Assembly (NCBI GenBank): GCA_964482515.1 | Contig: CAYZXT010000009.1 | Coordinates: 16,251-80,250 of the forward strand | Origin: an uncultured Elusimicrobia bacterium | Lineage (GTDB): Bacteria > Elusimicrobiota > Elusimicrobia > FEN-1173 | Direction of reading: 5' to 3' | DNA length: 64,000 nucleotides | In this document: positions 1,749 through 45,925 of the stretch, piece after piece | Layout of the letters: every line of letters begins with the position of its first letter | How positions within the stretch are numbered: position 1 is the first letter of the stretch | Made by a program: the position numbers and the translations under genes | The notes under the pieces: generated by a model | What the model was told of the DNA's origin: nothing | What the model saw: only the letters and a program-made list of their open reading frames with translations | The model's database searches: none

Positions 1749-1784
1749 CTGACATCACATCCGGGTTCTCGCTCCCCGCCCCCG

Positions 1785-1838
1785 AATTCTTCATCCTCCT
1801 TTCAGCGTTTCTTCAGACCCAAGATGTAGTCTCTTCGC
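1785..1838 (+). promoter_or_regulatory. Conserved ORF6N leader, copy L1
   Basis: AATTCTTCATCCTCCTTTCAGCGTTTCTTCAGACCCAAGATGTAGTCTCTTCGC abuts ATG 1839. It aligns with 24249-24303 and 26288-26344 over the shared blocks TCTTCATCC, TTCTTCAGA and A(A/G)A(A/T)GTA. Confidence 0.7.
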
Positions 1839-2375
1839 ATGACGATCCAATCGATCAACGATATCCACCGGATGATTTACCTGATCCGCGGGCGGAAGGT
1901 GATGCTCGACCGCGACTTGGCCGCGCTCTACGGCGTTCCCGTGAAACGGCTGAATGAGCAGGTCCGGCGGAATCGAAAGCGATTTCCGTCCGATTTCAAG
2001 TTTCAGCTCTCAAGGGAAGAGGCGGGTTTTCTAAGGTCGCAAATTGCGACCTTAGAGCCGGGGCGGGGCAAATACAGTAAATATGTGCCGGATGCATTCA
2101 CCGAACATGGGGCCGTCATGTTGGCCAGCGTTTTAAGCAGCCCGCGCGCCATTCAAATGAGTGTTGATGTTGTCCGGGCCTTCATTGAAATGAGGCGAAT
2201 CATTTCTGCAACCCAAGGGTTGGAGGAGAAAATGGCGGCACATGAGAAGAGCATAATTGGCTTAACGAATGACTGCGAAATTTGTTCGAACTTCTCAAGC
2301 CGTTGCTGGAGGCGCCGCCCAAAACACCGGGCACTGTCGGCTTCCGCTAGTTCGGTGCCGGCGTTGATTTATTAA
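1839..2375 (+). CDS. ORF6N (KilA-N-related) DNA-binding domain protein, copy 1; the C-terminal tail appears frameshifted
   Basis: MTIQSINDIHRMIYLIRGRKVMLDRDLAALYGVPVKRLNEQVRRNRKRFPSDFKFQLSREEAGFLRSQIATLEPGRGKYSKYVPDAFTEHGAVMLASVLSSPRAIQ is the classic ORF6N pattern. After about 2279 the +1 frame (NLFELLKPLLEAPPKTPGTVGFR*, stop 2348-2350) matches paralog 2 (MFDLLQPLLDGPTKKPGKIGFG), whereas the annotated frame does not. Confidence 0.8.
   Translation: MTIQSINDIHRMIYLIRGRKVMLDRDLAALYGVPVKRLNEQVRRNRKRFPSDFKFQLSREEAGFLRSQIATLEPGRGKYSKYVPDAFTEHGAVMLASVLSSPRAIQMSVDVVRAFIEMRRIISATQGLEEKMAAHEKSIIGLTNDCEICSNFSSRCWRRRPKHRALSASASSVPALIY
2031..2055. repeat. Perfect 25-nt palindrome inside ORF6N copy 1 (12-bp arms)
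   Basis: CTAAGGTCGCAA-A-TTGCGACCTTAG, checked base by base. It encodes LRSQIATL. Confidence 0.9.
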
Positions 2376-16789: not shown

Positions 16790-16818
16790 AAATTGTGCAG
16801 CAAGTTGCTGCACAATTT
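16790..16818. promoter_or_regulatory. Perfect 29-nt palindrome upstream of the YhcG-like gene
   Basis: AAATTGTGCAGCAA-G-TTGCTGCACAATTT (14-bp arms, checked base by base) ends 38 nt before ATG 16857. A second, imperfect palindrome TGCCACAGCTTGCGGCA follows. Confidence 0.6.
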
Positions 16819-16856: not shown

Positions 16857-17942
16857 ATGCCGCGTCAGAAAAAATCCCATCCAATAGTGAAACAAGCTGC
16901 TTCATCATTTCCGATGCCCGTTGATTTGTTGTCGGACATTCGAGGGTTTATTGAGACAACCCGTTCCCGGACGGCGCAGGCCGTCAATGCCGCATTGGTC
17001 ATGCTCTATTGGCGCATCGGGCGGCGTATCCAAGACGATGTTCTTAAAAACAAGCGGGCCGGTTATGGGGAAGAGATTGTGCAGACACTGTCGACACAAT
17101 TGGTCCCTGAATTCGGGGAGGGATTTGGCAAGCGGGTTCTTTTTCGGATGATTCGGTTCGCCGAGGCTTTCCCGGACGAACAGATTGTGTCGACGCTGTC
17201 GACACAATTGGGATGGTCTCATTTTGTGGAAATCATTCCCTTGGACGATCCGCTCAAGCGGAATTTCTACGCCGAGATGTGTCGGCTGGAGGGCTGGAGC
17301 GTGCGGAAGTTGCGGGAGAAAATCAGCGGGATGCTTTTTGAGCGGACGGCCCTTTCTAAGAAACCCGCCAAACTCGCTGAGTTGGAGCTGAAGAAGCTTC
17401 GCGAAGAGGACAAGCTCACGCCGGACCTGGTTTTCCGGGACCCTTATTTCCTGGATTTTCTCGGTCTTAAAGGTGTGTATCTGGAAAAGGATTTGGAAGC
17501 CGCGATCTTGCGGGAGATGGAGACGTTCATCCTGGAGTTGGGGGCCGGTTTTTCCTTCGTCTCTCGGCAAAAACGCATCCAGATCGGCGGAGAGGATTTT
17601 TATTTGGACCTTTTGTTCTATCACCGTAAACTGCGCCGCCTCGTCGCCGTGGAATTGAAATTGGGGAAGTTTAAACCCCAGTTCAAAGGCCAGATGGAGC
17701 TTTACCTTCGCTGGCTGGACAAGCACGAACGGCAGTCCGGCGAAGAAGCGCCGCTCGGACTCATCCTTTGCGCGGACAAGTCCGACGAACAGGTGGAGTT
17801 GTTGCAACTTGAAAAGAGCGGCATTCGCGTTGCTCAATATATGACTGCCTTGCCGTCTCGAAAGGTATTGGAAAATAAACTCCACCAAGCCATCCGCCAT
17901 GCGCGGGAACGCTTGGAAACCATAAAAGAATCCGGCGATTAG
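16857..17942 (+). CDS. YhcG/DUF1016 family PD-(D/E)xK nuclease
   Basis: The DUF1016_N region has the duplicated IV(Q/S)TLSTQL and WSHFVEIIPL motifs. The C-terminal nuclease core is GEDFYLDLLFYHRKLRRLVAVELKLGKFKPQFKGQMELYLRWLD. ATG 16857 is preceded by AGGTG; the track starts at GTG 16848. Confidence 0.85.
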   Translation: MPRQKKSHPIVKQAASSFPMPVDLLSDIRGFIETTRSRTAQAVNAALVMLYWRIGRRIQDDVLKNKRAGYGEEIVQTLSTQLVPEFGEGFGKRVLFRMIRFAEAFPDEQIVSTLSTQLGWSHFVEIIPLDDPLKRNFYAEMCRLEGWSVRKLREKISGMLFERTALSKKPAKLAELELKKLREEDKLTPDLVFRDPYFLDFLGLKGVYLEKDLEAAILREMETFILELGAGFSFVSRQKRIQIGGEDFYLDLLFYHRKLRRLVAVELKLGKFKPQFKGQMELYLRWLDKHERQSGEEAPLGLILCADKSDEQVELLQLEKSGIRVAQYMTALPSRKVLENKLHQAIRHARERLETIKESGD

Positions 17943-18011
17943 TGACCCCGTTGGCCCGTTTCTTTGGTTACTTTCTTTCGGGCACGCGAAAGAAAGTGAC
18001 ATAATGTCCGC

Positions 18012-18983: not shown

Positions 18984-19004
18984 GTTTTTGATGTCATTCC
19001 GGCG

Positions 19005-19088
19005 CCTTGCCGCTAGGCATGGTCCCTCTTTGTAAGAAGGGGGGTAGGGTGAGGGTGGGCATTTATCGTGGCACAGCCCGGCCAAATT
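19005..19088 (+). repeat. Dispersed island repeat, copy B
   Basis: CCTTGCCGCTAGGCATGGTCCCTCTTTGTAAGAAGGGG ... TGGCACAGCCCGGCCAAATT. It starts 22 nt after the S1/P1 stop. Confidence 0.75.
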
Positions 19089-19190
19089 TCCTAATATGGC
19101 GAAGTGGTTTTCAGACGGAAACAGCGAGGGCGTCTTGAGGGAATCATGGGGCGCGTGAGGTTTGTTTTGGGAAATGATTAGGAGGATTGT

Positions 19191-21977
19191 TTGCCTTTAA
19201 GTTGGAATGAGATTCGTCATCGAGCTATTGGATTTTCACGCGAATGGGCAACGGCTGTGCGTGAAAGATCGGAATCCCAAACTTTTTGGAATGAATTTTT
19301 CCTGGTCTTTGGCTTCCCGCGGAAGAAAGTCGCCCTCTTTGAGGAACCAGTAAAGAAGTTGTCTGGGGAATATGGGTATATCGATCTCATCTGGCCGGGA
19401 ACGTTGTTGGTTGAACATAAGAGTTTCGGTCAAGACTTAAGCAAGGCTGAGTCTCAAGCTTTCCGCTATGCCAGGAGTTTGAACCAAGAGGATTCTCCCC
19501 GCTACATCATCGTTTCGGATTTCGCCCGCATCTCTCTCCACGATTTGGAAGAGGACAAAAGTATTACCTTTCCACTGACTGACTTTCATAAACACATCCA
19601 CGACTTCGCATTTATGTCCGGGTATCAGCAGCATACCTTTCAAGATCAAGATCCTATCAATATCGAAGCCGTCGAAATCATGGGTAAACTCCATGATGTT
19701 CTTGGGGACGGTGGCTACAGCGGCCATAAACTGGAGCGGTTTCTAGTCCGCATTCTTTTTTGCCTCTTCGCAGAGGATACGGGTATTTTCGAACGTGAGG
19801 AATTTCACTTCTTTATACGGAACAGCACCTCCGAGGATGGCTCAGATTTAGGGAACCATCTTGCCCGACTGTTTGACGTCCTAAACACACCAAAAGAAAA
19901 ACGCCAAAAGAACCTCGATGAATCCCTTGCAGATTTACCTTATGTAAATGGGGAACTGTTCGCGGAGAACCTTGGTTTCGCGGACTTCAATAGCGATATG
20001 CGCAATGCGCTTTTGGCCTGCACGCGGTTTGATTGGTCCAAGATATCTCCAGCCATCTTCGGCTCTCTATTCCAAGCGGTAATGGAACCGAAAGAGCGCC
20101 GCCAAATCGGAGCACACTATACCAGCGAGAGGGATATATTGAAAGTTGTTCGGAGTCTATTTCTTGATGATCTCCGCGTAGAATTTGAGGGTATCAAGAG
20201 ATCCACTGGTCAAAGTCGTAAATCTGGATTGAAACGCTTCCATGAAAAAATCTGCGCTTTACGTTTTCTTGATCCGGCCTGTGGTTGCGGTAATTTTCTT
20301 GTTATTACCTACCGTGAACTCCGTGAATTGGAATTGGAAACATTACGGGAGTTGCATCTTACAGGCACCGGTGAGGCAAAAGGATTCCAGCAGGAATTAA
20401 CGCTTGAGGAAGTAAACAGACTATCACTTGTTGATGTGGACCAACTATACGGCATTGAATTGAAGGAATGGCCCGTAAGAATCGCCGAAGTGGCTCTTTG
20501 GTTAATGGATCATCAAATGAACATCAAGGTTTCCGAGACCTTCGGCCAATTGTATCAAAGGCTTCCTCTGAAGAAACGTCCCAACATCGTGCAAGGTAAC
20601 GCTTTACGAATGGATTGGAAAGAAGTCATTCCCCCAGAGAAATGCAGTTACATCCTTGGGAACCCGCCATTTGTGGGGGCCATGTATATGGAGCCAGAGC
20701 AACGGCACGATATGCTGCTTGCAGCGAATAATTTAAATGGTGTTGGTGTTTTGGATTATGTTTCGGCATGGTATTTTGTCGCTTCGGGCTATGTAACGGG
20801 GACAAAAATAAGAGTTGGTTTTGTTTCAACCAACTCGATTACACAAGGCGAGCAGGCGGGAATTTTATGGTCTGAACTGTTTAATCGGGGAGTGAAGATT
20901 CATTTTGCACATCGGCCATTCGCCTGGGATAGTGAGGCCAGAGGAAAGGCTCATGTTCACGTTGTGATAATAGGATTTGGTGTTTTCGACATCCCGGCAA
21001 AAATAATATTTGATTATGATGCTAATCCCGGGAAACCAATCTTGTCGCAGGTTCGTAATATTAATCCTTATTTAGTTGAGGGCATGGACATTTGCATTCG
21101 TAATCGAAGTGAGCCGATTTGTAATGTTCCCAAAATGGCTTGGGGAAGCCAGCCTCGGGATGGGGGAAATTTCCTGATGAGTTCCGAGGGAAAAAAGGAT
21201 CTATTACGTAAGGAACCTGCTGCAATAAAATGGATTAGACCATTCATGGGGGCTGAAGAGTTTTTAAATGGCGTAGAACGATGGTGCCTTTGGTTGGTGG
21301 GTATTCAGCCGCAAGAACTTAACAGCCTTGTTGAAGTCAAAAATAGAGTTGAAGGTGTAAAGCAAATGCGTCTTTCTAGTAAAGCGGAAGCGACCCGAAA
21401 AAAAGCGAGCACACCAACATTATTTGCCCAAATTGCACAGCCAAACTCTGATTATCTTCTGGTCCCATTGGTAAGTTCTGAACGCCGTTCAATTATTCCA
21501 TTTGGCTTCATGTCCAAAGAGGTTATTGCCAGCAATCTTTGTTGCATAGTTTCGGATGCTACGCCATATCATTTCGGAATACTCTCATCGTCTATGCATA
21601 TGGCCTGGGTTCGTCAGATTTGTGGTAGGCTCGAATCTCGTTACAGGTATTCAAAGGATATCGTCTACAACAATTACCCTTGGCCGCAAAATCCGACGGA
21701 CAAACAGAAAGTCGCGGTGGAAGAGGCGGCGCAAAACGTCTTGGACGTCCGAAAGGAATATTCAAAATCCACGTTGGCCGATCTTTACGATCCACTGTCC
21801 ATGCCGCCGAAGCTTGTCAAGGCTCACGCGAACTTAGACCGGGTTGTTGACCTTTGCTATCGCAAGGAATCGTTCACCAGCGAACGCCAGCGCGTGGAAT
21901 ATCTTTTCAATTTATATGAGCGATTGACCGAACCGTTGGTTGCTATGTCTAGTCGGAAAAAGCGAACCAAGACTTAG
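19191..21977 (+). CDS. MmeI-family type IIL restriction-modification enzyme (single-chain endonuclease plus N6-adenine methyltransferase)
   Basis: The N-terminus reads SWNEIRHRAIGFSREW...ESQTFWNEFFLVFG...YGYIDLIWPGTLLVEHKS (D...ExK). The SAM motif is RFLDPACGCGNFLV and the catalytic motif is LGNPPFVG. It is 928 aa with a TTG start preceded by AGGAGG, and is clearly AT-richer than the flanks. Confidence 0.85.
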   Translation: MPLSWNEIRHRAIGFSREWATAVRERSESQTFWNEFFLVFGFPRKKVALFEEPVKKLSGEYGYIDLIWPGTLLVEHKSFGQDLSKAESQAFRYARSLNQEDSPRYIIVSDFARISLHDLEEDKSITFPLTDFHKHIHDFAFMSGYQQHTFQDQDPINIEAVEIMGKLHDVLGDGGYSGHKLERFLVRILFCLFAEDTGIFEREEFHFFIRNSTSEDGSDLGNHLARLFDVLNTPKEKRQKNLDESLADLPYVNGELFAENLGFADFNSDMRNALLACTRFDWSKISPAIFGSLFQAVMEPKERRQIGAHYTSERDILKVVRSLFLDDLRVEFEGIKRSTGQSRKSGLKRFHEKICALRFLDPACGCGNFLVITYRELRELELETLRELHLTGTGEAKGFQQELTLEEVNRLSLVDVDQLYGIELKEWPVRIAEVALWLMDHQMNIKVSETFGQLYQRLPLKKRPNIVQGNALRMDWKEVIPPEKCSYILGNPPFVGAMYMEPEQRHDMLLAANNLNGVGVLDYVSAWYFVASGYVTGTKIRVGFVSTNSITQGEQAGILWSELFNRGVKIHFAHRPFAWDSEARGKAHVHVVIIGFGVFDIPAKIIFDYDANPGKPILSQVRNINPYLVEGMDICIRNRSEPICNVPKMAWGSQPRDGGNFLMSSEGKKDLLRKEPAAIKWIRPFMGAEEFLNGVERWCLWLVGIQPQELNSLVEVKNRVEGVKQMRLSSKAEATRKKASTPTLFAQIAQPNSDYLLVPLVSSERRSIIPFGFMSKEVIASNLCCIVSDATPYHFGILSSSMHMAWVRQICGRLESRYRYSKDIVYNNYPWPQNPTDKQKVAVEEAAQNVLDVRKEYSKSTLADLYDPLSMPPKLVKAHANLDRVVDLCYRKESFTSERQRVEYLFNLYERLTEPLVAMSSRKKRTKT

Positions 21978-22008
21978 ATCAAAAAGGTGTTTTTATGAAA
22001 AAGAAACC

Positions 22009-22035
22009 GGTACCGGAGTTGACAGATTGACAATC
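22009..22035 (+). repeat. Copy 2 of the GT(G/A)CCGGAGTTGACA motif
   Basis: GGTACCGGAGTTGACAGATTGACAATC, 32 nt after the MmeI-like stop. Confidence 0.7.
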
Positions 22036-22076
22036 AGGTTCAGTACTAGATTTGATTTGTTGAAGGAGCCCCCGCA

Positions 22077-22223
22077 ATGAAAACCAAAAAGCCCCTCTGC
22101 CAAGCCATCAACACGAAAGGGAAGAAGTGCATTGTCCCTGCCGTGCCCGGCAGCAAATTCTCACCTTCCTACAGACAGGTGCCACGGCTAGCGCCGACGG
22201 GTTTCCGACATAAGAAGAAATAA
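22077..22223 (+). CDS. 48-aa basic protein with a short Cys motif (possibly degenerate)
   Basis: GAAGGAG lies 9 nt upstream of the ATG. The product is MKTKKPLCQAINTKGKKCIVPAVPGSKFSPSYRQVPRLAPTGFRHKKK. It is too short for the ORF track, and its 3' half is made of island repeat copy C. Confidence 0.4.
   Translation: MKTKKPLCQAINTKGKKCIVPAVPGSKFSPSYRQVPRLAPTGFRHKKK
22131..22201 (-). repeat. Dispersed island repeat, copy C (inverted)
   Basis: The reverse complement reads CCCGTCGGCGCTAGCCGTGGCACCTGTCTGTAGGAAGGTG ... GGCACGGCAGGGACAAT. Confidence 0.7.
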
Positions 22224-22369
22224 CTGTCCTTTTCTCCCGTTATTCCCAGCCCGTTTCCCTAAAACTTCAGATTAAATCCCGCTAAGCTCCAGATTCTTCC
22301 TCTATGATGAGGTGAGATATGGTTCTTGATGGTCGTTCACATATATGTTAACCTTGAGGAGATGGCGGC

Positions 22370-22792
22370 GTGAGCACTCATTCTGAGAAGCGGAATTGCG
22401 TGCTTTATTCCGGCCGGTTCTATTCGGCCGAATGGTATTACAGGGAGGACGGCGGGATGCCGGCTCTCGAATATTATCGGGAACTCCCTATCCATGATCG
22501 AGTGCGGCTATTACAGATCATTAAGCACCTGTGCGACGCTCCCTACGGGACAATCCTTCCCGTGACGCTTTACAGGATCGAAGATCGGGAAAACAAGATT
22601 TACGCGTTTAAGCCGAGGGACGAGCGATTCTTCAGTTTTACGATGGAGGGCGCAAGGGTCATCGTTACGAACGCTTACCGCAAGCATTCACAACAGATGA
22701 CCAAGGCGGATCTGGAGTCCTTGAAAACAGCTGTTCGCTATCGGAACGATTATTTGAGGCGCCTGAAAGAGGGGACATATTATGAAGGCTAA
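22370..22792 (+). CDS. RelE/ParE-superfamily toxin (Gp49/DUF891-like)
   Basis: ...KIYAFKPRDERFFSFTMEGARVIVTNAYRKHSQQMTKADLE. The GTG start is preceded by GAGGAG, and the gene overlaps the downstream HTH gene by 11 nt. Confidence 0.65.
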   Translation: MSTHSEKRNCVLYSGRFYSAEWYYREDGGMPALEYYRELPIHDRVRLLQIIKHLCDAPYGTILPVTLYRIEDRENKIYAFKPRDERFFSFTMEGARVIVTNAYRKHSQQMTKADLESLKTAVRYRNDYLRRLKEGTYYEG

Positions 22793-23132
22793 AAAGAAAA
22801 TCAAAAAGGCAAAGAGCACCTTTGATCGGGAAATGGAAAACCCGGAATTCAGGAATCTTTTCGAGGAATCTTGGCCCGCCTTCCAAGTGGAAGTCCAGCT
22901 GCTGAAAGCCTTGGAAGGCAAGCAATGGTCCTATTCCGACCTCGCGAAGGTATTGCACACGCAGAAGAGCGCCATTTCGCGCGACCTGAAAGGCGGCGGC
23001 ATTCGGTCTGCTTCCATCACGCGGATCGCGAAGATGGCGGAAGCCCTGGGAATGAGATTTATCCCGTTCTGCGTCTCCGAGAAGAAGGCGAGGGAAATTC
23101 TTCCCGCTATCAAGAAACTCCTGGCCGCGTAA
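22782..23132 (+). CDS. HTH (XRE-like) antitoxin
   Basis: WSYSDLAKVLHTQKSAISRDLKGGGIRSASITRIAKMAEALGMRF is a helix-turn-helix pattern. The gene is small and translationally coupled to the toxin gene. Confidence 0.65.
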   Translation: MKAKKKIKKAKSTFDREMENPEFRNLFEESWPAFQVEVQLLKALEGKQWSYSDLAKVLHTQKSAISRDLKGGGIRSASITRIAKMAEALGMRFIPFCVSEKKAREILPAIKKLLAA

Positions 23133-23141
23133 TAGGGATTC

Positions 23142-23167
23142 GTGCCGGAGTTGACACGTTGACAATC
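23142..23167 (+). repeat. Copy 3 of the GT(G/A)CCGGAGTTGACA motif
   Basis: GTGCCGGAGTTGACACGTTGACAATC, 10 nt after the antitoxin stop and 32 nt before ATG 23199. Confidence 0.7.
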
Positions 23168-23198
23168 GACCAGCCTATTCTTTAAGTACAATACCTCC

Positions 23199-24242
23199 AT
23201 GCCGAAAGAATCCATCCCCTCGGTCGCCCATCCCGCCTACGCCAAGCTCCGTTCCGCCGTCCACAAAACCCTCCTCCTCGGTCAGAAACAAATCGAACAA
23301 GCCAAAGTCCGTACCTACTACGAAACCGGAAAACACATCCAAGAACATATCGCCCGCTACGGTTCGCGCTCCGAGCATTACGGCGCTCAAGTGGTGGAGA
23401 AGCTTTCGGTTGATTTGGGGATTAGCACCCGGGTCTTGCGGCAGTGTGTGCAGTTCGCCCGGAACTTCAAGATTGTGAACGCGCGTTCACAATCTTTGCC
23501 GGCCCAATTGCCTTGGACGCATTACCGTCAACTGATGACCATTCCGGATGAGGACGCGCGGATTTCCCTGATGAAAAGGGCCGAGAAGTCCGAATGGAGC
23601 GAACGCCAGCTGGCGGAGAAGATCCGCCTTGAGGTGCGAGAAGCAAAGTCCCCGTCAACCAACGGCGGGCATAGTTCAATGGTAGAAAAGAAGTATCCCA
23701 AGCTCATTCCCAAGCGCGGCGAGCTTTACACGTACCGCCTCATTGCGCCGGAAGCGGTTGATGGCGAAGCGGGTCTGTGGATTGATTTGGGTTTCCAGGT
23801 GCGGCGCACCTTTCCACAAACAGGTGCCATGGCTAGCGCCAAGGGCGGACAGATCGTGGAATCCAAAAAGACGGGGGAAATCTATTCCGCGGTCCCGTCC
23901 AAGCGGACGGAGGCGGACTTGTTCACCTTCCAGGCGCCGGTGGAGCGGGTGGTGGACGGCGACACGCTGATCGTGAACGTCGACCTGGGGTTCGACACGG
24001 GCGTGCGGCAATACCTGCGGTTGCGCGGCATCAATTGCCCGGAGCTGGACACGCCGGAGGGCAAGCGGGCCAAGGCCTTCGTGGAAAAGGAATTGGGGAA
24101 AGCGCGGCGGATCATCCTGACGAGCTCCCGGTCCGACAAGTACGACCGCTACCTGGCGGACGTGTTTATTGAGTCCACCAACGGCGAACGATATCTGAAC
24201 CAGGCGCTGCTGGACGAAGGCCTCGCGGTCCGGATGGAATAG
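23199..24242 (+). CDS. DUF1016_N domain fused to a staphylococcal-nuclease (SNase)-like domain
   Basis: The N-terminal 150 aa parallels the YhcG N-domain (…WTHYRQLMTIPDEDARISLMKRAEKSEWSERQLAEKI). The C-terminus reads VVDGDTLIVNVDLGF...YLRLRGINCPELDTPEGKRAKAFVEKEL...DKYDRYLADVFI...YLNQALLDEGLAV. Confidence 0.75.
   Translation: MPKESIPSVAHPAYAKLRSAVHKTLLLGQKQIEQAKVRTYYETGKHIQEHIARYGSRSEHYGAQVVEKLSVDLGISTRVLRQCVQFARNFKIVNARSQSLPAQLPWTHYRQLMTIPDEDARISLMKRAEKSEWSERQLAEKIRLEVREAKSPSTNGGHSSMVEKKYPKLIPKRGELYTYRLIAPEAVDGEAGLWIDLGFQVRRTFPQTGAMASAKGGQIVESKKTGEIYSAVPSKRTEADLFTFQAPVERVVDGDTLIVNVDLGFDTGVRQYLRLRGINCPELDTPEGKRAKAFVEKELGKARRIILTSSRSDKYDRYLADVFIESTNGERYLNQALLDEGLAVRME
23809..23845 (-). repeat. 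Dispersed island repeat, copy D (inverted, inside a CDS)
   Basis: The reverse complement reads CCCTTGGCGCTAGCCATGGCACCTGTTTGTGGAAAGG. On the + strand it encodes TFPQTGAMASAKG in the linker of the DUF1016_N-SNase protein. Confidence 0.65.
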
Positions 24243-24248
24243 CCCTCC

Positions 24249-24303
24249 CAATCTTCATCCCTCCTTCAGTCGTTCTTCAGACTTAAAAAGTAATCTCTCC
24301 TCC
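24249..24303 (+). promoter_or_regulatory. Conserved ORF6N leader, copy L2
   Basis: CAATCTTCATCCCTCCTTCAGTCGTTCTTCAGACTTAAAAAGTAATCTCTCCTCC, followed by an ATG (24304) that hits a stop after 4 codons. Confidence 0.7.
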
Positions 24304-24334
24304 ATGAATTGTGCATGATGAATGGGAGGACTAG

Positions 24335-24359
24335 AGGTGGTCGCAAATTGCGACCGCCT
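24335..24359. repeat. Near-perfect palindrome in the ORF6N-2 5' region, sharing a 17-nt core with the copy-1 in-gene palindrome
   Basis: AGGTGGTCGCAA-A-TTGCGACCGCCT has one T:G mismatch. The core GGTCGCAAATTGCGACC (24339-24355) is identical to 2035-2051. Confidence 0.8.
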
Positions 24360-24386
24360 TCGACCACTCAAATTCTTGGAGGTTTT

Positions 24387-24914
24387 ATGCGAGCTGTAAT
24401 GAAAACCGAACACATTCAATCGATGATATTCCTGATTCGCGGGCGCAAGGTCATGTTGGACCGTGATTTGGCGGCGCTTTATGGCATTGCCACAAAGGTC
24501 CTTAAGCAGGCTGTTAAGCGGAATCATTTGCGATTCCCGGAGGATTTCATGTTTGAACTGTCTGCGGAAGAGCAGTCAAATTGGAGGTCACAATTTGTGA
24601 CCTCCAATTCTTCCCTGAATAAGGGACTCCGGTGGCGTTCAATGGCATTCACTGAGTATGGTGTGGCCATGCTTTCCGGCGTTCTGAAAAGTGAAAGGGC
24701 CGTTCAGGTTAATATCGCCATCGTTCGGGCATTTATCGACATGCGGCGGATGATTTCGGAAACACGAGGGTTGGCGGAGAAATTGGCGGAGCATGAGAAA
24801 AAGATCGGGGGACTGGCGAACGATGTCCGGCATATGTTCGACCTGCTACAGCCGTTGCTGGATGGACCCACTAAAAAACCCGGGAAGATCGGGTTCGGAA
24901 TGCGACAGATTTAG
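24387..24914 (+). CDS. ORF6N domain protein, copy 2 (apparently intact)
   Basis: MRAVMKTEHIQSMIFLIRGRKVMLDRDLAALYGIATKVLKQAVKRNHLRFPEDFMFELSAEEQSNWRSQFVTSN...[35 protein letters not shown] lies 4 nt before ATG 24387; the frame is open from 24309. Confidence 0.85.
   Translation: MRAVMKTEHIQSMIFLIRGRKVMLDRDLAALYGIATKVLKQAVKRNHLRFPEDFMFELSAEEQSNWRSQFVTSNSSLNKGLRWRSMAFTEYGVAMLSGVLKSERAVQVNIAIVRAFIDMRRMISETRGLAEKLAEHEKKIGGLANDVRHMFDLLQPLLDGPTKKPGKIGFGMRQI
24579..24609. repeat. Perfect 31-nt palindrome inside ORF6N copy 2 (15-bp arms)
   Basis: AATTGGAGGTCACAA-T-TTGTGACCTCCAATT, checked base by base. It encodes NWRSQFVTSN. Confidence 0.9.
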
Positions 24915-25570
24915 CGGGCGATGAGGGCGTTGTACGCCCGGATGGCGGCGTAGGCGTCGTTGGCGGCGTAGAGGAGTTGCAGTTCGCTGAGGATCGGGAG
25001 CCCCCAGTTGGACGTGCCCTGCTTTTTGGATTTGAGGAAGCGTTGTTTGAAGAGCAGCGCGATGCCCACCTTGGAGCCCACGCCGCGGCCGAAGCCCTTT
25101 TCGGCGAAGAGCGTTTCGAGGTCCACCACGCCGTGGGGCTCGACGCGCAGTTTCTTGCGGATGCGCGACAGGTCGTCCCCCAGGCCGAAACCCACTTTTT
25201 TGAGGCTCTTAAAAGAGATGAGTTCGGCGGCGGCCTGGCGGCATTCCGGCTGGTTCAGCATGAACACGTAGCCGCGCGTGGCGGTGGCGAACTGGACGAC
25301 GTGGGGGCCGGTGGAGACCTGTCCTTTATGGAAGGTGGGTTTGGATTCGGTGTCGAAGCCCACCACGCTTTCGGCCGCGAGCTCCTTGAACGCCCGCTGC
25401 GCGAGGGCCGGCGTGTTCACCGCGAGGATGTCCCCGCGGCGCAGGGCGTGGAACGGCGGAAGGGCCGCCATTTCCTCGCGCGTGGGCCAGTGGGCCGGGC
25501 GCTGGCGGTTCGGGACGCGCGGCGGCGCGGAGGGTTTGAACAGTTTTTTGAGCCAGCGGCGGATGACCAA
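24911..25570 (-). CDS. 3'-5' exonuclease, DEDDy (RNase D / WRN-exo-like) family
   Basis: VVGFDTESKP (DxE), KKVGFGLGDDLSRI and LLYAANDAYAAIRAY (Yx3D). Confidence 0.75.
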   Translation of the reverse strand: MVIRRWLKKLFKPSAPPRVPNRQRPAHWPTREEMAALPPFHALRRGDILAVNTPALAQRAFKELAAESVVGFDTESKPTFHKGQVSTGPHVVQFATATRGYVFMLNQPECRQAAAELISFKSLKKVGFGLGDDLSRIRKKLRVEPHGVVDLETLFAEKGFGRGVGSKVGIALLFKQRFLKSKKQGTSNWGLPILSELQLLYAANDAYAAIRAYNALIAR

Positions 25571-25576
25571 GGGGGA

Positions 25577-26212
25577 TTACGGTTTCCGGAACAGCGAGGC
25601 GTCCACCGGGCCGGGGGTGAACTCGACGGCTTCCTCGGTCCGCCGGAAGACGGTGGTGTTGGCCTGGGAGGAGTGCAAAACGATTTCGGCCTTCAGGACC
25701 GCGCCCGTCTCGGCGTCCACCCAGGCGTCGACGCTGCGCACGGAGTCCGGCAATTTCACCTTGGCGTGGTAGCGCCGGGCCTTGCGGCCCGCCACTGTTT
25801 CGGTCTCGCCCGCCTCGCCGGTGTAGGCCTTCCGCCAGAAGCGGATCTCGTGGAGCTCCGCCTCCGTGGGTTTGTGGGAATACTCGGAGGGCTCCGTGGC
25901 GTGCGCGCCGTCGGGCGAAGGGGCGTAGACGATCTTTTCGAACAGGGTCTCGCCGTCGAAGAACCGCGTCACCTTGTATTCGGCGGGGGGCGCCATGAAG
26001 CGGTCCTCCCGCGCGTCGGCCTCGGTGCGGAAGCGCTTCCCGTCGGTGTGGATCCTGACGCGCTCCGCGGTTTTCGTGCCGGCCGTTTCGTTCTCCCGGA
26101 TGACCGTCCAGGTGCCGCTGAAGGGCGAGTCCTGGACGCGGCTGGGCGAGCATTTCTTGAGCAGGAAAGCGAAGGCGGCGACGGCGAGGACGGCCAGGAG
26201 CAGGTTCTTCAT
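25577..26212 (-). CDS. Exported or anchored protein of unknown function
   Basis: It begins MKNLLLAVLAVAAFAFLLKKCSPS and is soluble and beta-rich afterwards. There is a 6-nt gap to the downstream exonuclease gene. Confidence 0.5.
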   Translation of the reverse strand: MKNLLLAVLAVAAFAFLLKKCSPSRVQDSPFSGTWTVIRENETAGTKTAERVRIHTDGKRFRTEADAREDRFMAPPAEYKVTRFFDGETLFEKIVYAPSPDGAHATEPSEYSHKPTEAELHEIRFWRKAYTGEAGETETVAGRKARRYHAKVKLPDSVRSVDAWVDAETGAVLKAEIVLHSSQANTTVFRRTEEAVEFTPGPVDASLFRKP

Positions 26213-26287
26213 GGCCTGATTGTAAGAAACAACCGCCGCCGGTTCAAGGGCGGAGATTCACCCGACCCGCTTCCGAGGCCTTCCTCC

Positions 26288-26344
26288 CAATCTTCATCCT
26301 CCCTCCCGCGGTTCTTCAGAATCAAAAAGTAACCTTTCCTGCGG
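26288..26344 (+). promoter_or_regulatory. Conserved ORF6N leader, copy L3
   Basis: CAATCTTCATCCTCCCTCCCGCGGTTCTTCAGAATCAAAAAGTAACCTTTCCTGCGG is fused directly to mid-gene ORF6N sequence. Confidence 0.7.
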
Positions 26345-26551
26345 TTCCCGGAAGATTTCGCATTTCGCCTGAATAAAGAGGAATATGAGTCTTTAAGATT
26401 CCAAACTGGAATCTTAAAGAGAGGACAGCACGCCAAGTATCTGCCATTGGTATTCACTGAGCAAGGCGTTGCCATGCTCTCGAGCGTTCTCCGGAGCAAA
26501 CAGGCGGTTCAAGTGAACATCGCCATCATGCGAGTTCCCCTACTCCCTTGA
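26333..26551 (+). pseudogene. ORF6N relic (copy 3), lacking both the N-terminal and C-terminal parts
   Basis: A frame without a start codon reads ...[64 protein letters not shown], then PLLP*. The IRG.KVMLD.DLA..YGV N-terminal segment is missing. Confidence 0.8.
26390..26420. repeat. Perfect 14-bp-arm palindrome inside the ORF6N relic
   Basis: TCTTTAAGATTCCA-AAC-TGGAATCTTAAAGA, checked base by base. It encodes [11 protein letters not shown]. Confidence 0.9.
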
Positions 26552-26577
26552 TAGTAAGTAGCTTATAAACTACACTT

Positions 26578-26925
26578 ATGGAGGCCGGGTTGGAAATCAA
26601 ACCCCTGAAGATTGAATATTATTACGCGAGGGATGGCCGGGTTCCCTATAGGGAATGGTTTTATTCCTTGAAAGATATGAAAACCCGGCAGATTATCATT
26701 GCACGCTTAACGCGGGTGGAGCGGGGATTGTTGGGAGATTCTAAGTCCATTGGTTCGGGCGTTCATGAACTCCGGATTGATAAAGGACCAGGATATCGTA
26801 TTTATTTTGGACGACAGGGCGATCACGTCATCCTGCTTTTATTAGGCGGCACTAAGAGCAGCCAAAGGAAAGACATTGAAAAAGCCCATGATTATTGGGT
26901 GGATTATTTAAGGAGACAAGGATGA
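26578..26925 (+). CDS. Addiction-module killer protein (RelE/HigB-like, COG3657-type)
   Basis: ...DGRVPYREWFYSLKDMKTRQIIIARLTRVERGLLGDSKSIGSGVHELRIDKGPGYRIYFGRQGDHVILLLLGGTKSSQRKDIEKA. Confidence 0.8.
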   Translation: MEAGLEIKPLKIEYYYARDGRVPYREWFYSLKDMKTRQIIIARLTRVERGLLGDSKSIGSGVHELRIDKGPGYRIYFGRQGDHVILLLLGGTKSSQRKDIEKAHDYWVDYLRRQG

Positions 26926-27236
26926 AGAAGCCCACGTACCATGAAGATCTCATTGAAAGCTTGAAGGACCCTAAATACGCCTTGGGGTATCTGAACGCCT
27001 GTTTGGAAGATGAGGACGAAGGGGTGTTCCTCCTGGCATTGAAGCATGTGGCCGAAGCCCATGGCGGGTTGAGCGGACTGGCGAAGAAAACGGGATTGAA
27101 CCGGGAACATCTTTTTCGAATGTTGTCCAAGAACGGGAATCCGCGCCTGGAAAACCTGCGGCAGGTGGCCGGCGCGTTCGGGTGGAAGATCCGCTTCGTG
27201 GAGATGAAATCCCCGAAACTGCGCCGCGCCGCTTAA
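26922..27236 (+). CDS. Addiction-module antidote protein (HigA-family HTH)
   Basis: MKKPTYHEDLIESLKDPKYALGYLNACLEDEDEGVFLLALKHVAEAHGGLSGLAKKTGLNREHLFRMLSKNGNPRLENL. It has an ATGA start/stop overlap with the toxin gene. Confidence 0.8.
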   Translation: MKKPTYHEDLIESLKDPKYALGYLNACLEDEDEGVFLLALKHVAEAHGGLSGLAKKTGLNREHLFRMLSKNGNPRLENLRQVAGAFGWKIRFVEMKSPKLRRAA

Positions 27237-27253
27237 GCCCCGCCCGGTTTCCG

Positions 27254-27451
27254 TCAGATTTCGAACTTGTGCCGTCCCACCAGCACGCTCTCCGCGTGCT
27301 CGATCCGGTAGGCCCCCGGGTCCCGCAGGAATTCCGCCTTGCACTCCGGGCTGCAGAAATAAACCGTCCAGCCGCCGGAGAGCGTTTGTTCCGTGTGCAG
27401 CGCGAAATCGAGCTGTCGTCCGCAAACAGGGTCTTTGACCATGGCGATCAC
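27254..27451 (-). CDS. YHS/TRASH-type small metal-binding domain protein
   Basis: VKDPVCGRQLD...YFCSPECKAEFLRDPGAY. Confidence 0.55.
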   Translation of the reverse strand: MIAMVKDPVCGRQLDFALHTEQTLSGGWTVYFCSPECKAEFLRDPGAYRIEHAESVLVGRHKFEI

Positions 27452-45685: not shown

Positions 45686-45925
45686 AATAAAAAACCCACT
45701 TCCAACGCGGAAATGGGTAACGGAGAATCAAACGCCGTAGATGCCGGCGGCCTCCCTATAAATAGGAACAACGCTACCGGCGAGCCCTTCCCGCGAAGGA
45801 AAATCTACCTTTTAGTCGACCGGACTTAGACGCGTTTGCGCGCGCCCATTACCGTTGCGGGGCAGTCCCGGAATCACACCGGGTTCCTCTAAAAGGGAGT
45901 GAGCGAAAGAACTGGCCTGAGTATG
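45686..45925 (-). ncRNA. Cobalamin riboswitch with a terminator expression platform
   Basis: The minus strand reads ...AGAGGAACCCGGTGTGATTCCGGGACTGCCCCGCAACGGTAATGGG...AAGTCCGGTCGAC...GCGGGAAGGG... (the conserved AGGGAA/GGTG.GA.TCC/CCCGC.AC.GTAA core plus a B12-box-like segment). It is followed by CCCATTTCC-gcgt-TGGAAGTGGG-TTTTTTA, and then the receptor gene. Confidence 0.75.

Follow-up and report, generated by a model that had tools for sequence, protein, structure and literature searches.

The ORF6N genes (Pfam PF10543) of an uncultured Elusimicrobia bacterium carry a palindrome inside their coding sequence, and our comparison of these genes with homologues from many phyla indicates that this palindrome is probably the cognate operator of the ORF6N protein, embedded in the protein's own gene. 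The 64,000-nucleotide (nt) stretch that we analysed (contig CAYZXT010000009.1, positions 16,251 to 80,250; hereafter the window) holds three ORF6N copies, all on the + strand, of which copy 2 is the sole fully intact gene and copy 3 is a relic that we consider, as part of the same reading, to be a recent truncation. A preceding interpretation of the DNA from its letters alone (the sequence-only reading) had argued from the perfect palindrome of the relic to a function at the nucleic-acid level. Such a function is strongly supported by family-wide evidence, namely palindrome excess, covarying arms, stand-alone boxes, and a match between box and recognition helix, whereas the retention of the palindrome in the relic lends it no support.

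A genome scan yielded 80 loci from more than 15 phyla with ORF6N genes 51–78% identical to the relic peptide, and ~90 homologues from these phyla have the palindrome at the same codons. The in-gene box occupies codons ~65–75, with the consensus CTTTAAGGT-NN-CAA-w-TTG-nn-ACCTTAAAG and arms that range from 12 to 20 nt among homologues. Nearly all of 94 ORF6N copies pair at least 12 of 16 positions about a conserved Gln codon, on which a 1-nt centre falls in 88 of the 94. The longest perfect arm of these 94 copies averaged 10.4 nt, compared to 4.9 nt after synonymous-codon resampling, and 56 of the 57 copies with arms of at least 10 nt were never matched in 200 resamplings; an origin of the palindrome in the peptide alone is rejected by this result. 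When copies were aligned by register, 13 of the 16 pairs had changed on both sides (211 cells), and 87% of cells were paired compared to 73% in shuffles, with none of 500 shuffles attaining any of the measures; controls in which the register was slid gave 28–47% pairing. Compensatory changes in the arms alter the encoded residues, with Ser, Phe, Cys, or Leu ahead of the Gln and Val, Ala, or Gly behind it, and DNA symmetry therefore overrides the peptide. Distant members of the family (32–45% identity) on plasmids of Legionella, Treponema, Butyrivibrio, Sulfuricurvum, and Bacteroides have a palindrome at the same codons despite a diverged peptide. When mapped onto an AlphaFold2 model of copy 2, the residues encoded by the palindrome fall at the end of helix 60–69 and in a low-confidence loop, and near-invariance would be odd at such a site under a protein-level constraint.

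An excess of palindromes is also seen within the window, where five palindromes with arms of at least 13 nt were observed compared to ~0 in composition-preserving block shuffles, and three of the five fall in ORF6N copies. We located the ORF6N palindromes with a custom scan; a standard inverted-repeat finder, at the settings used, listed none of them. Only four boxes of the ORF6N type occur in the window, all of them in or adjoining ORF6N genes.

The sequence of the box tracks the sequence of the protein. We classed genes by the variable dinucleotide NN in AAGGT-NN-CAA and calculated its mutual information with every protein column. Information was ~0 at all columns except residues 68 and 71, which NN itself encodes, and residues of helix 36–45 (copy 2 numbering), where it reached 1.67 of a possible 1.89 bits at residue 41 and 1.28 bits at residue 38, with weaker values at residues 42 and 40. 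Gln at residue 41 occurred with CA in 25 of 25 genes, Glu with CG in 17 of 18, Arg with GC in 17 of 18, Lys with TC in 10 of 10, and Leu with TG or TT in 3 of 3. This match extends to synonymous sites, as the Ser68 codon is TCA with Gln41 (25/25) and TCG with Glu41 (17/18), and the Gly71 codon is GGA with Lys41 (10/10) and GGC with Arg41 (17/17). Because residue 41 tracks synonymous choice at Ser68 and Gly71, and because synonymous codons are used without restriction at residues 38 and 41 themselves, both an intraprotein contact of residue 41 with residues 68 and 71 and nucleotide–nucleotide pairing are excluded. Among close pairs of genes with differing NN, 122 of 125 differ at residue 41, including tandem paralogues at loci L004, L008, and L040, and among distant pairs with the same NN, 31 of 32 share residue 41. 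Inheritance by subfamily or as a block was rejected, since the coupling is present in close and distant pairs alike and the variable columns between helix and box carry ~0 information. The coupling between residue 41 and NN was seen again in two further sets, 189 independent metagenomic proteins and 21 unique genes from plasmids or viruses, and box position 7 couples to Lys37 (helix position 2).

The AlphaFold2 model of copy 2 (predicted local distance difference test score, pLDDT, 76) contains a β-hairpin, helix 25–32, a 3-residue turn, helix 36–45, and a later long helix at residues 103–158. Helices 25–32 and 36–45 form a predicted helix–turn–helix; the best fold match of the model is the Dachshund/Ski winged-helix DNA-binding domain (probability 0.96 but E = 0.11), and the sequence of the ORF6N C-terminus resembles coiled coils. 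In helix–turn–helix proteins, the classical base-contacting positions of the recognition helix are 1, 2, and 6, and in ORF6N these correspond to residues 36, 37, and 41. Gln–A, Glu–C, and Arg/Lys–G are canonical amino-acid/base preferences, and the observed pairings of residue 41 with bases match them. NN lies 4–5 positions from the centre on each arm, so the two dinucleotides are 10 base pairs (bp) apart, one helical turn, on one helix face. Both a dyad site with one-turn spacing and covariation between recognition-helix residues and operator bases, two of the marks by which helix–turn–helix regulators are recognised, are found in this family.

Boxes of the same kind also stand outside genes. 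Ten intergenic sites lie 238–299 nt upstream of an in-gene centre, equivalent to 20–80 nt before the start codon, where ~0 are expected by chance; they come from at least nine loci in several phyla (hosts are Planctomycetota, Bacteroidota, Acidobacteriota, Omnitrophota, and deltaproteobacteria) and from copy 2 in the window. Tandem arrangements are found among the stand-alone boxes, and a few boxes are located immediately 3′ of the gene. In 350 kilobases (kb) of other loci, 65 boxes occupied the gene site, and most of the 16 that did not were a short way upstream of ORF6N. The flanks of stand-alone boxes have no similarity to ORF6N, and these boxes are therefore not gene remnants; the proposal that the upstream box of copy 2 is what is left of another ORF6N gene was rejected because equivalent boxes elsewhere likewise have no flanking ORF6N similarity. 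In the window, the upstream box of copy 2 is flanked by a conserved leader, described below, on one side and by the ribosome-binding site on the other; its distance from the in-gene box is 247 nt, and its position is that of the upstream boxes in other phyla. By its helix residues Val38 and Gln41, copy 2 is a CA-class reader; its upstream box is of the CG class, the class matched by the helix of copy 1 and not by its own, which suggests cross-regulation between the paralogues.

The relic lacks both ends of the gene. Its Pfam ORF6N match is limited to profile positions 38–86 of 86 at 55.8 bits, and this match, like those of copies 1 and 2, exceeds the gathering score of 27.8 bits. The frame has no ATG or GTG start, as the sequence-only reading had said, and TTG at 26447 is its sole start-like codon. 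The N-terminal loss that this reading put at roughly 38 residues is real, but comes to ~43–47 residues relative to copies 1 and 2 and takes out the entire predicted helix–turn–helix. Its description of a missing C-terminal region was correct: ~61 coiled-coil residues are gone, with homology in the protein alignment ending past ...NIAIMR at ~26536, and the genes for a toxin and an antidote (26578..27236) stand where the 3′ part of the ORF6N gene would be. The non-homologous tail overlaps a promoter-like match (26548–26576) ahead of this downstream toxin–antitoxin pair. At the other junction, the 3′ end of the leader is joined to a codon equivalent to copy 2 residue ~48 and runs within ~2 nt into CTG CGG TTC CCG GAA GAT TTC (LRFPEDF), which bears out the reported fusion of leader and FPEDF. 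The palindrome is perfect, with arms of 14 nt about a 3-nt centre, just as had been reported; in the usual register of the family, with a 1-nt centre, 14 of 16 positions are paired and the innermost pair is A.C, a variant found in 14 of 85 homologues.

Apart from truncation at both ends, the relic is not decayed as the sequence-only reading had held, because it has no internal stop, no frameshift, and no loss of a conserved residue. In a hidden Markov model built from 90 homologues, the relic stood at the 86th percentile of scores. These homologues had been picked by similarity to the relic, and we therefore added an independent comparison of Pfam ORF6N scores across the same 65 residues, which gave 55.8 bits for the relic, 45.8 bits for copy 1, and 47.6 bits for copy 2. 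If the 195-nt fragment had taken five to ten random substitutions, the chance that none fell on the 28 paired bases would be 0.46–0.21. Of the usual signs of a pseudogene, loss of the start and truncation are present, and excess substitutions, stops, and frameshifts are absent. As the rest of the relic is equally undecayed, its intact palindrome is uninformative alone and says only that truncation was recent, and the argument from retention fails by the test that had been set for it. The palindrome of the relic is intact because too little time has elapsed, not because of demonstrable selection on the relic.

Additional properties bear on the origin of this copy. The G+C fraction of the relic is 0.49, similar to that of copy 2 and the toxin–antitoxin pair, compared to 0.605 for the window, which fits foreign DNA acquired not long ago. 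The relic peptide is 64–72% identical to foreign homologues vs 47% and 43% to its paralogues. An exact-protein look-up of the neighbouring gene, made to find the same locus in related genomes, brought up just three short contigs, all 100% identical to the window, so there is no allelic or orthologous comparison by which to date the truncation; an exact-protein look-up of the downstream toxin returned no record. We infer that the relic is a recently truncated, horizontally acquired TC-class copy, and it is an ordinary recent truncation, like any truncated pseudogene in an island of defence and mobile elements. Its box would be an orphaned operator, since the 64-kb window contains no TC-class (Asn38/Lys41) reader and the relic's own helix is lost. 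The relic would have lost the reading head and the dimerisation helix and kept the leader together with this orphaned box.

Each ORF6N protein of the window is closer to homologues of other phyla than to its own paralogues, with copy 2, for example, 65% identical to its best foreign match vs 54% to copy 1. The frame of copy 2 is also open from an ATG of the leader at 24315, 72 nt (24315–24386) before the ORF6N start. In copy 1, past ...GLTND, homologous reading (RNLFELLKPLLEAPPKTPGTVGFR*) resumes in another frame, and this frameshift marks either a pseudogene or a sequencing error.

Table 1. Positions in the window of the ORF6N copies, their leaders and boxes, and the neighbouring features discussed in the text.
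Feature	Position	Strand	Details
Leader of copy 1	1778..1837	+	Three-leader profile, DNA alignment
ORF6N copy 1	1839..2350	+	Pfam 104.6 bits; 1-nt frameshift at ~2273, in C-terminal coiled-coil part
Copy 1 predicted recognition helix VKRLNEQV	1941-1964	+	R/E, candidate CG-class reader
Copy 1 in-gene palindrome, CG class	2030..2056	.	TCTAAGGTCGCAA a TTGCGACCTTAGA; codes LRSQIATLE
Related stand-alone palindrome	16790-16818		40 nt upstream of gene 16857-17942
DUF1016/YhcG palindrome, gene 16857-17942	17184-17208		ATTGTGTCGAC gct GTCGACACAAT
Palindrome in DUF1016_N-SNase gene 23199-24242	23469-23496		AAGATTGTGAACGC/GCGTTCACAATCTT
Leader of copy 2	24242..24301	+	Three-leader profile, DNA alignment
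Copy 2 stand-alone upstream box, CG class	24336..24358	.	GGTGGTCGCAA a TTGCGACCGCC
ORF6N copy 2, intact	24387..24914	+	175 aa; Pfam 100.5 bits
Copy 2 predicted recognition-helix codons (TKVLKQAV)	24492..24515	+	AlphaFold2 helix 36-45; mutual-information peak at residues 38, 41
Copy 2 in-gene palindrome, CA class	24579..24609	.	AATTGGAGGTCACAA t TTGTGACCTCCAATT; codes NWRSQFVTSN
Leader of copy 3 (relic)	26282..26340	+	Three-leader profile, DNA alignment
Relic open frame	26333-26551	+	72 codons; no ATG/GTG start; in-frame TAA just before, at 26330-26332
Relic 5′ junction	26338..26344	.	Three-copy DNA alignment, translation
Relic, ORF6N-homologous part	26339..26538	+	LRFPEDF...NIAIMR; tblastn, Pfam PF10543
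Relic in-gene palindrome, TC-class ORF6N box	26390..26420	.	TCTTTAAGATTCCA aac TGGAATCTTAAAGA; class assigned by the residue 41–NN code
Relic 3′ breakpoint and non-homologous tail (VPLLP*)	26537..26577	.	Protein alignment
Gp49/HigB-like toxin	26578-26925	+	Pfam PF05973, below cut-off
HI1420-type antidote	26922-27236	+	Pfam PF21716

In the mechanism that we propose, ORF6N would be a dimeric DNA-binding protein with an N-terminal winged helix–turn–helix-like domain followed by a long C-terminal coiled coil, and it would physically bind the box with a regulatory outcome. Helix position 6 (residue 41), aided by residue 38, would read NN of each half-site, and a change of specificity would shift the helix and both arms together. 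With the site written in coding sequence, it would follow that the box dictates the conserved LRSQ(I/F)(V/A/G)T peptide and not the reverse. The role of the system may be autoregulation or cross-regulation that travels with a highly mobile gene and acts through promoter occlusion, a roadblock, or looping. What binding within the gene would do is conjecture, and candidates include a roadblock, looping to the upstream box ~270 bp off, or something non-transcriptional. A bolder and more tentative extension, which we regard as possible but would not call probable, is that ORF6N genes are portable regulator–operator cassettes in at least five mutually insulated classes (Q/CA, E/CG, R/GC, K/TC, and L/TG), like immunity groups, that boxes such as 24336–24358 and 26390–26420 wire paralogues into the networks of defence islands, and that the design may reach as far as DUF1016/YhcG.

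Several points weigh against an embedded operator. Every step from covariation to 'operator' is one that we infer from sequences. Confidence in the structural model is moderate (pLDDT 76), and the E-value of its fold match (0.11) is weak. Fisher p-values for the coupling are inflated because the sequences are phylogenetically non-independent. At ~5 of 9 loci, the upstream box and the adjacent reader differ in class, copy 2 being one of them with its CG box and CA reader. Self-repression of a simple kind does not fit these sites, and cross-regulation has to be invoked. The symmetry of the arms reaches 13–20 nt from the dyad, beyond the usual footprint of a helix–turn–helix dimer, and such long arms leave room for an added constraint, which may be wing contacts, extrusion of a hairpin or cruciform, or homogenisation of the arms. 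For the relic, the truncation is undated, and we found no related genome that carries the locus.

Some of these points have a place in other explanations of the palindrome. An RNA hairpin, that is, an mRNA stem-loop that serves stability, RNase III processing, or ribosome pausing, with the upstream boxes as hairpins of the 5′ untranslated region, would account for perfect stems of 13–17 bp on the sense strand and for upstream boxes that abut the ribosome-binding site (e.g. at L033), and covariation alone fits any base-paired structure. In near-perfect copies, however, mismatches of the G.T type number 15 and those of the A.C type 28, so G.U is not enriched, and a 1-nt centre is typical of a duplex dyad rather than an RNA loop. 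A search of Rfam found no match at the gathering score or at E-values up to 5. A hairpin would also leave unexplained why a residue of the helix–turn–helix tracks NN, even at synonymous sites, and we judge this explanation very unlikely. A structured cis-regulatory RNA of an Rfam type was rejected for lack of both a covariance-model match and G.U enrichment. Alternatively, the palindrome could be a DNA hairpin, a cruciform, or a recombination site for neighbouring integrases or invertases that drives cassette rearrangements such as relic truncations and tandem arrays. ORF6N genes do adjoin integrases, a Tn3 transposase, and type I restriction-modification genes; they form tandem arrays (L004, L056, and L064); the box is duplicated within the genes of L107, L070, and L041; and its arms exceed the normal length of an operator. 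A tyrosine-recombinase core site (dif, lox, or att) is nevertheless rejected because it needs a 6–8-bp spacer, compared to a box centre of 1 nt, occasionally 3 nt. The breakpoints of the relic (~26341 and ~26537) lie away from the palindrome, different classes coexist with no evidence of exchange, and the helix-to-NN code indicates the ORF6N protein, not a recombinase, as the reader. We judge this explanation unlikely.

The palindrome might instead be functionless and self-perpetuating, with template switching or intra-strand gene conversion equalising arms that the protein tolerates and with the perfection of the relic owed to the same upkeep. The arms shift jointly even when residues change, their length varies from 12 to 20 nt, they are perfect in truncated copies (L056 copy 1, L069, and L023), and coding palindromes with concerted arms have a precedent in the mitochondria of Nematomorpha (PMC6649704). 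Such upkeep would explain neither the near one-to-one match of NN with a residue encoded 27–30 codons upstream nor the position-specific upstream boxes in many phyla, and we find it quite improbable as the whole account; a homogenising mechanism may nonetheless contribute to the perfection of the outer arms. The last alternative concerns the relic only, in which the box would be under selection as a decoy or auxiliary operator for a TC-class (Asn38/Lys41) reader elsewhere in the genome, or through a leader-driven transcript into the toxin–antitoxin pair. At L056, an N-truncated copy with a perfect CA box lies beside a CA-class reader whose own box is degenerate, and the upstream box of copy 2, of the class matched by copy 1, hints at cross-talk among paralogues. 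The 64-kb window has no TC-class reader, though, and the entire fragment is as intact as the box, so that selection on the relic box is improbable. An operator of the ORF6N protein with a recently truncated relic remains the explanation that we favour. Two further element classes were also considered and set aside: dispersed repeats like repetitive extragenic palindromes (REP) or miniature inverted-repeat transposable elements (MITE), as the boxes are tied to one gene family and do not occur in many unlinked intergenic copies, and intrinsic terminators, as no T-run follows any of the three in-gene palindromes and a terminator scan did not list them.

Known systems share parts of this arrangement. 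In Bacillus subtilis, parS reportedly lies inside the spo0J/parB gene. There, as proposed for ORF6N, a short palindromic site of a helix–turn–helix protein is found inside the gene for that protein, and the two are conserved together. The parS site differs in that it nucleates chromosome partition complexes, is present in many copies near the origin, and is essentially invariant in sequence, whereas ORF6N boxes fall into at least five classes that covary with the recognition helix, occupy one fixed codon position, and shape the peptide that defines the family. Auxiliary operators inside genes include lac O2 in lacZ and gal OI in galE, where, as proposed for ORF6N, a promoter-proximal operator is accompanied by a second one in a coding region a few hundred bp off, with an oligomeric repressor. 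Those sites are in regulated structural genes and not in the regulator's gene, they place no constraint on a conserved protein motif, and looping is only conjectured for ORF6N. In the Cro and cI proteins of phages λ and 434, positions 1, 2, and 6 of the recognition helix contact bases. The resemblance to ORF6N, predicted on the ORF6N side, lies in a dimer on a dyad site, half-site contacts one turn apart, and classes that behave like immunity groups; ORF6N differs from these repressors in a distinct fold variant (best match Dachshund/Ski), symmetry over 27–33 bp, and a site inside the coding sequence. In Nematomorpha mitochondria, perfect inverted repeats of up to 284 bp with concerted arms occur within protein-coding genes (PMC6649704). 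As in ORF6N, both arms are coding and the repeats persist despite conflict with the protein sequence (PMC6649704), but they occur across many unrelated genes in a small number of genomes and no reader is identified for them, whereas the ORF6N box spans 27–33 bp, belongs to one family across phyla, and is matched by a helix. Our literature search found no paper that links ORF6N or DUF1016 to an in-gene palindrome; DUF1016 and RhuM are reported merely as neighbours of inversion-targeted defence genes (PMC9881135). As far as this search found, the embedded-operator design of ORF6N has not been described before, and it would be distinct in its family-wide fixed codon position, in a signature peptide imposed by the operator, and in coevolution with the helix in discrete classes.

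If this explanation is correct, then the most conserved motif of the very widespread ORF6N family, LRSQ-I/F-V/A/G-T, is a translated DNA binding site, a DNA constraint masquerading as protein conservation, with consequences for how such motifs and selection statistics are interpreted. For ORF6N proteins, which are uncharacterised yet abound in type I restriction-modification operons, conjugative elements, and defence islands, the present results offer a first concrete hypothesis, that they are sequence-specific DNA binders under auto- or cross-regulation. Genes that cross phyla would be well served by an operator carried along with them in every transfer, and a natural code of one helix residue to one dinucleotide, with several orthogonal protein–site pairs, could be exploited experimentally and in synthetic biology. 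The relic itself is ordinary, and its intact palindrome adds no independent information.

Variation in copy number was seen both of genes and of boxes. Tandem ORF6N arrays with members of different specificity classes occur at L056 (2561, 3115, and 3824; three copies), L004 (four copies at ~600-nt spacing), L064 (three copies), L040, and L079. At L107 (3010–3561), L070, L041/L042, and L081, two tandem box units lie inside the coding sequence (e.g. ...LRSQIATLEKGADDETNLRSQTVTS...) and add ~15 codons; at L041/L042 the first unit is degenerate and the second perfect. Perfect palindromes persist in the truncated copies L056 copy 1, L069, and L023, and at L056 it is the N-truncated copy that keeps the perfect CA box.

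The ORF6N copies of the window share a leader of ~60 nt, pyrimidine-rich and of the pattern ..CCCAATCTTCATCC..GTTCTTCAGA..AAAAAGTAA.., for which a profile of the three leaders has exactly three occurrences in the window, each preceding an ORF6N copy. Between copies 2 and 3, identity is 84% across 50 nt of leader, compared to 56% in the coding DNA. The profile had no match in 80 homologous loci, a pattern scan of a metagenome collection gave 20 chance matches with no ORF6N nearby, and the leader was not found at the closest relatives of copy 2 (65% identity). Neither an Rfam match nor a convincing sigma-70 promoter was detected in the leader. The point at which its 3′ end joins differs in each copy, lying 72 nt ahead of the ORF6N start in copy 2, at the start codon in copy 1, and ~130 nt inside the gene in the relic. 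From the 5′ deletion endpoint of the relic, the sequence-only reading had raised leader-associated rearrangement; three differing junctions and a leader private to this genome are only suggestive of it. These features are compatible with a 5′ module of this lineage that is maintained separately and is either a promoter or regulatory region or a product of gene conversion. Two or three direct CTTCA repeats, ~11–12 nt or one helical turn apart, occur in each leader (1785–1817, 24249–24281, and 26288–26320), and by analogy their layout resembles the sites of regulators that recognise direct repeats.

The surroundings of ORF6N genes are rich in mobile and defence functions. At the plasmid loci L107–L112, ORF6N lies beside integrases, a Tn3 transposase, ArdA, and JAB/RadC leading-region genes, neighbours that fit a regulator carried by mobile and defence elements; in Treponema, ORF6N is found inside a type I restriction-modification operon (hsdM, a winged-helix gene, ORF6N, hsdS, and Fic). 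Copy 2 and the relic belong to a low-G+C island of the window (19000–27300; G+C 0.52 vs 0.605) that also contains an MmeI-family restriction-modification enzyme (19191–21977), the DUF1016_N-SNase gene, a 3′–5′ exonuclease, and the Gp49/HI1420 pair. At 22370–23132, an open reading frame without a Pfam match adjoins a gene with a helix–turn–helix domain, and by layout only these are possibly a toxin–antitoxin pair.

A second family in the window has palindromes of its own. In the PDDEXK nucleases of the DUF1016/YhcG type, both in the window and at loci L113–L200, a coding palindrome occupies a fixed site just ahead of a QLSWSH motif. Of 75 homologues encoded by plasmids or viruses, 65 have pairing at 10 or more of the 12 positions, with wide covariation between the arms; perfect arms average 8.4 nt, vs 4.3 nt when synonymous codons are resampled. 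A search for a reader residue (n = 39) gave no clean signal, just diffuse, phylogeny-like information. The operator-in-gene design may apply to DUF1016/YhcG as well. Right after the stop codon of the YhcG gene, a perfect hairpin with 11-bp arms (ACTTTCTTTCG ggcacg CGAAAGAAAGT, 17970–17997) is probably a terminator-like element. Unrelated to the ORF6N finding, a cobalamin riboswitch (RF00174) was detected on the − strand at 45762–45922 with 32.7 bits, barely over the gathering score.

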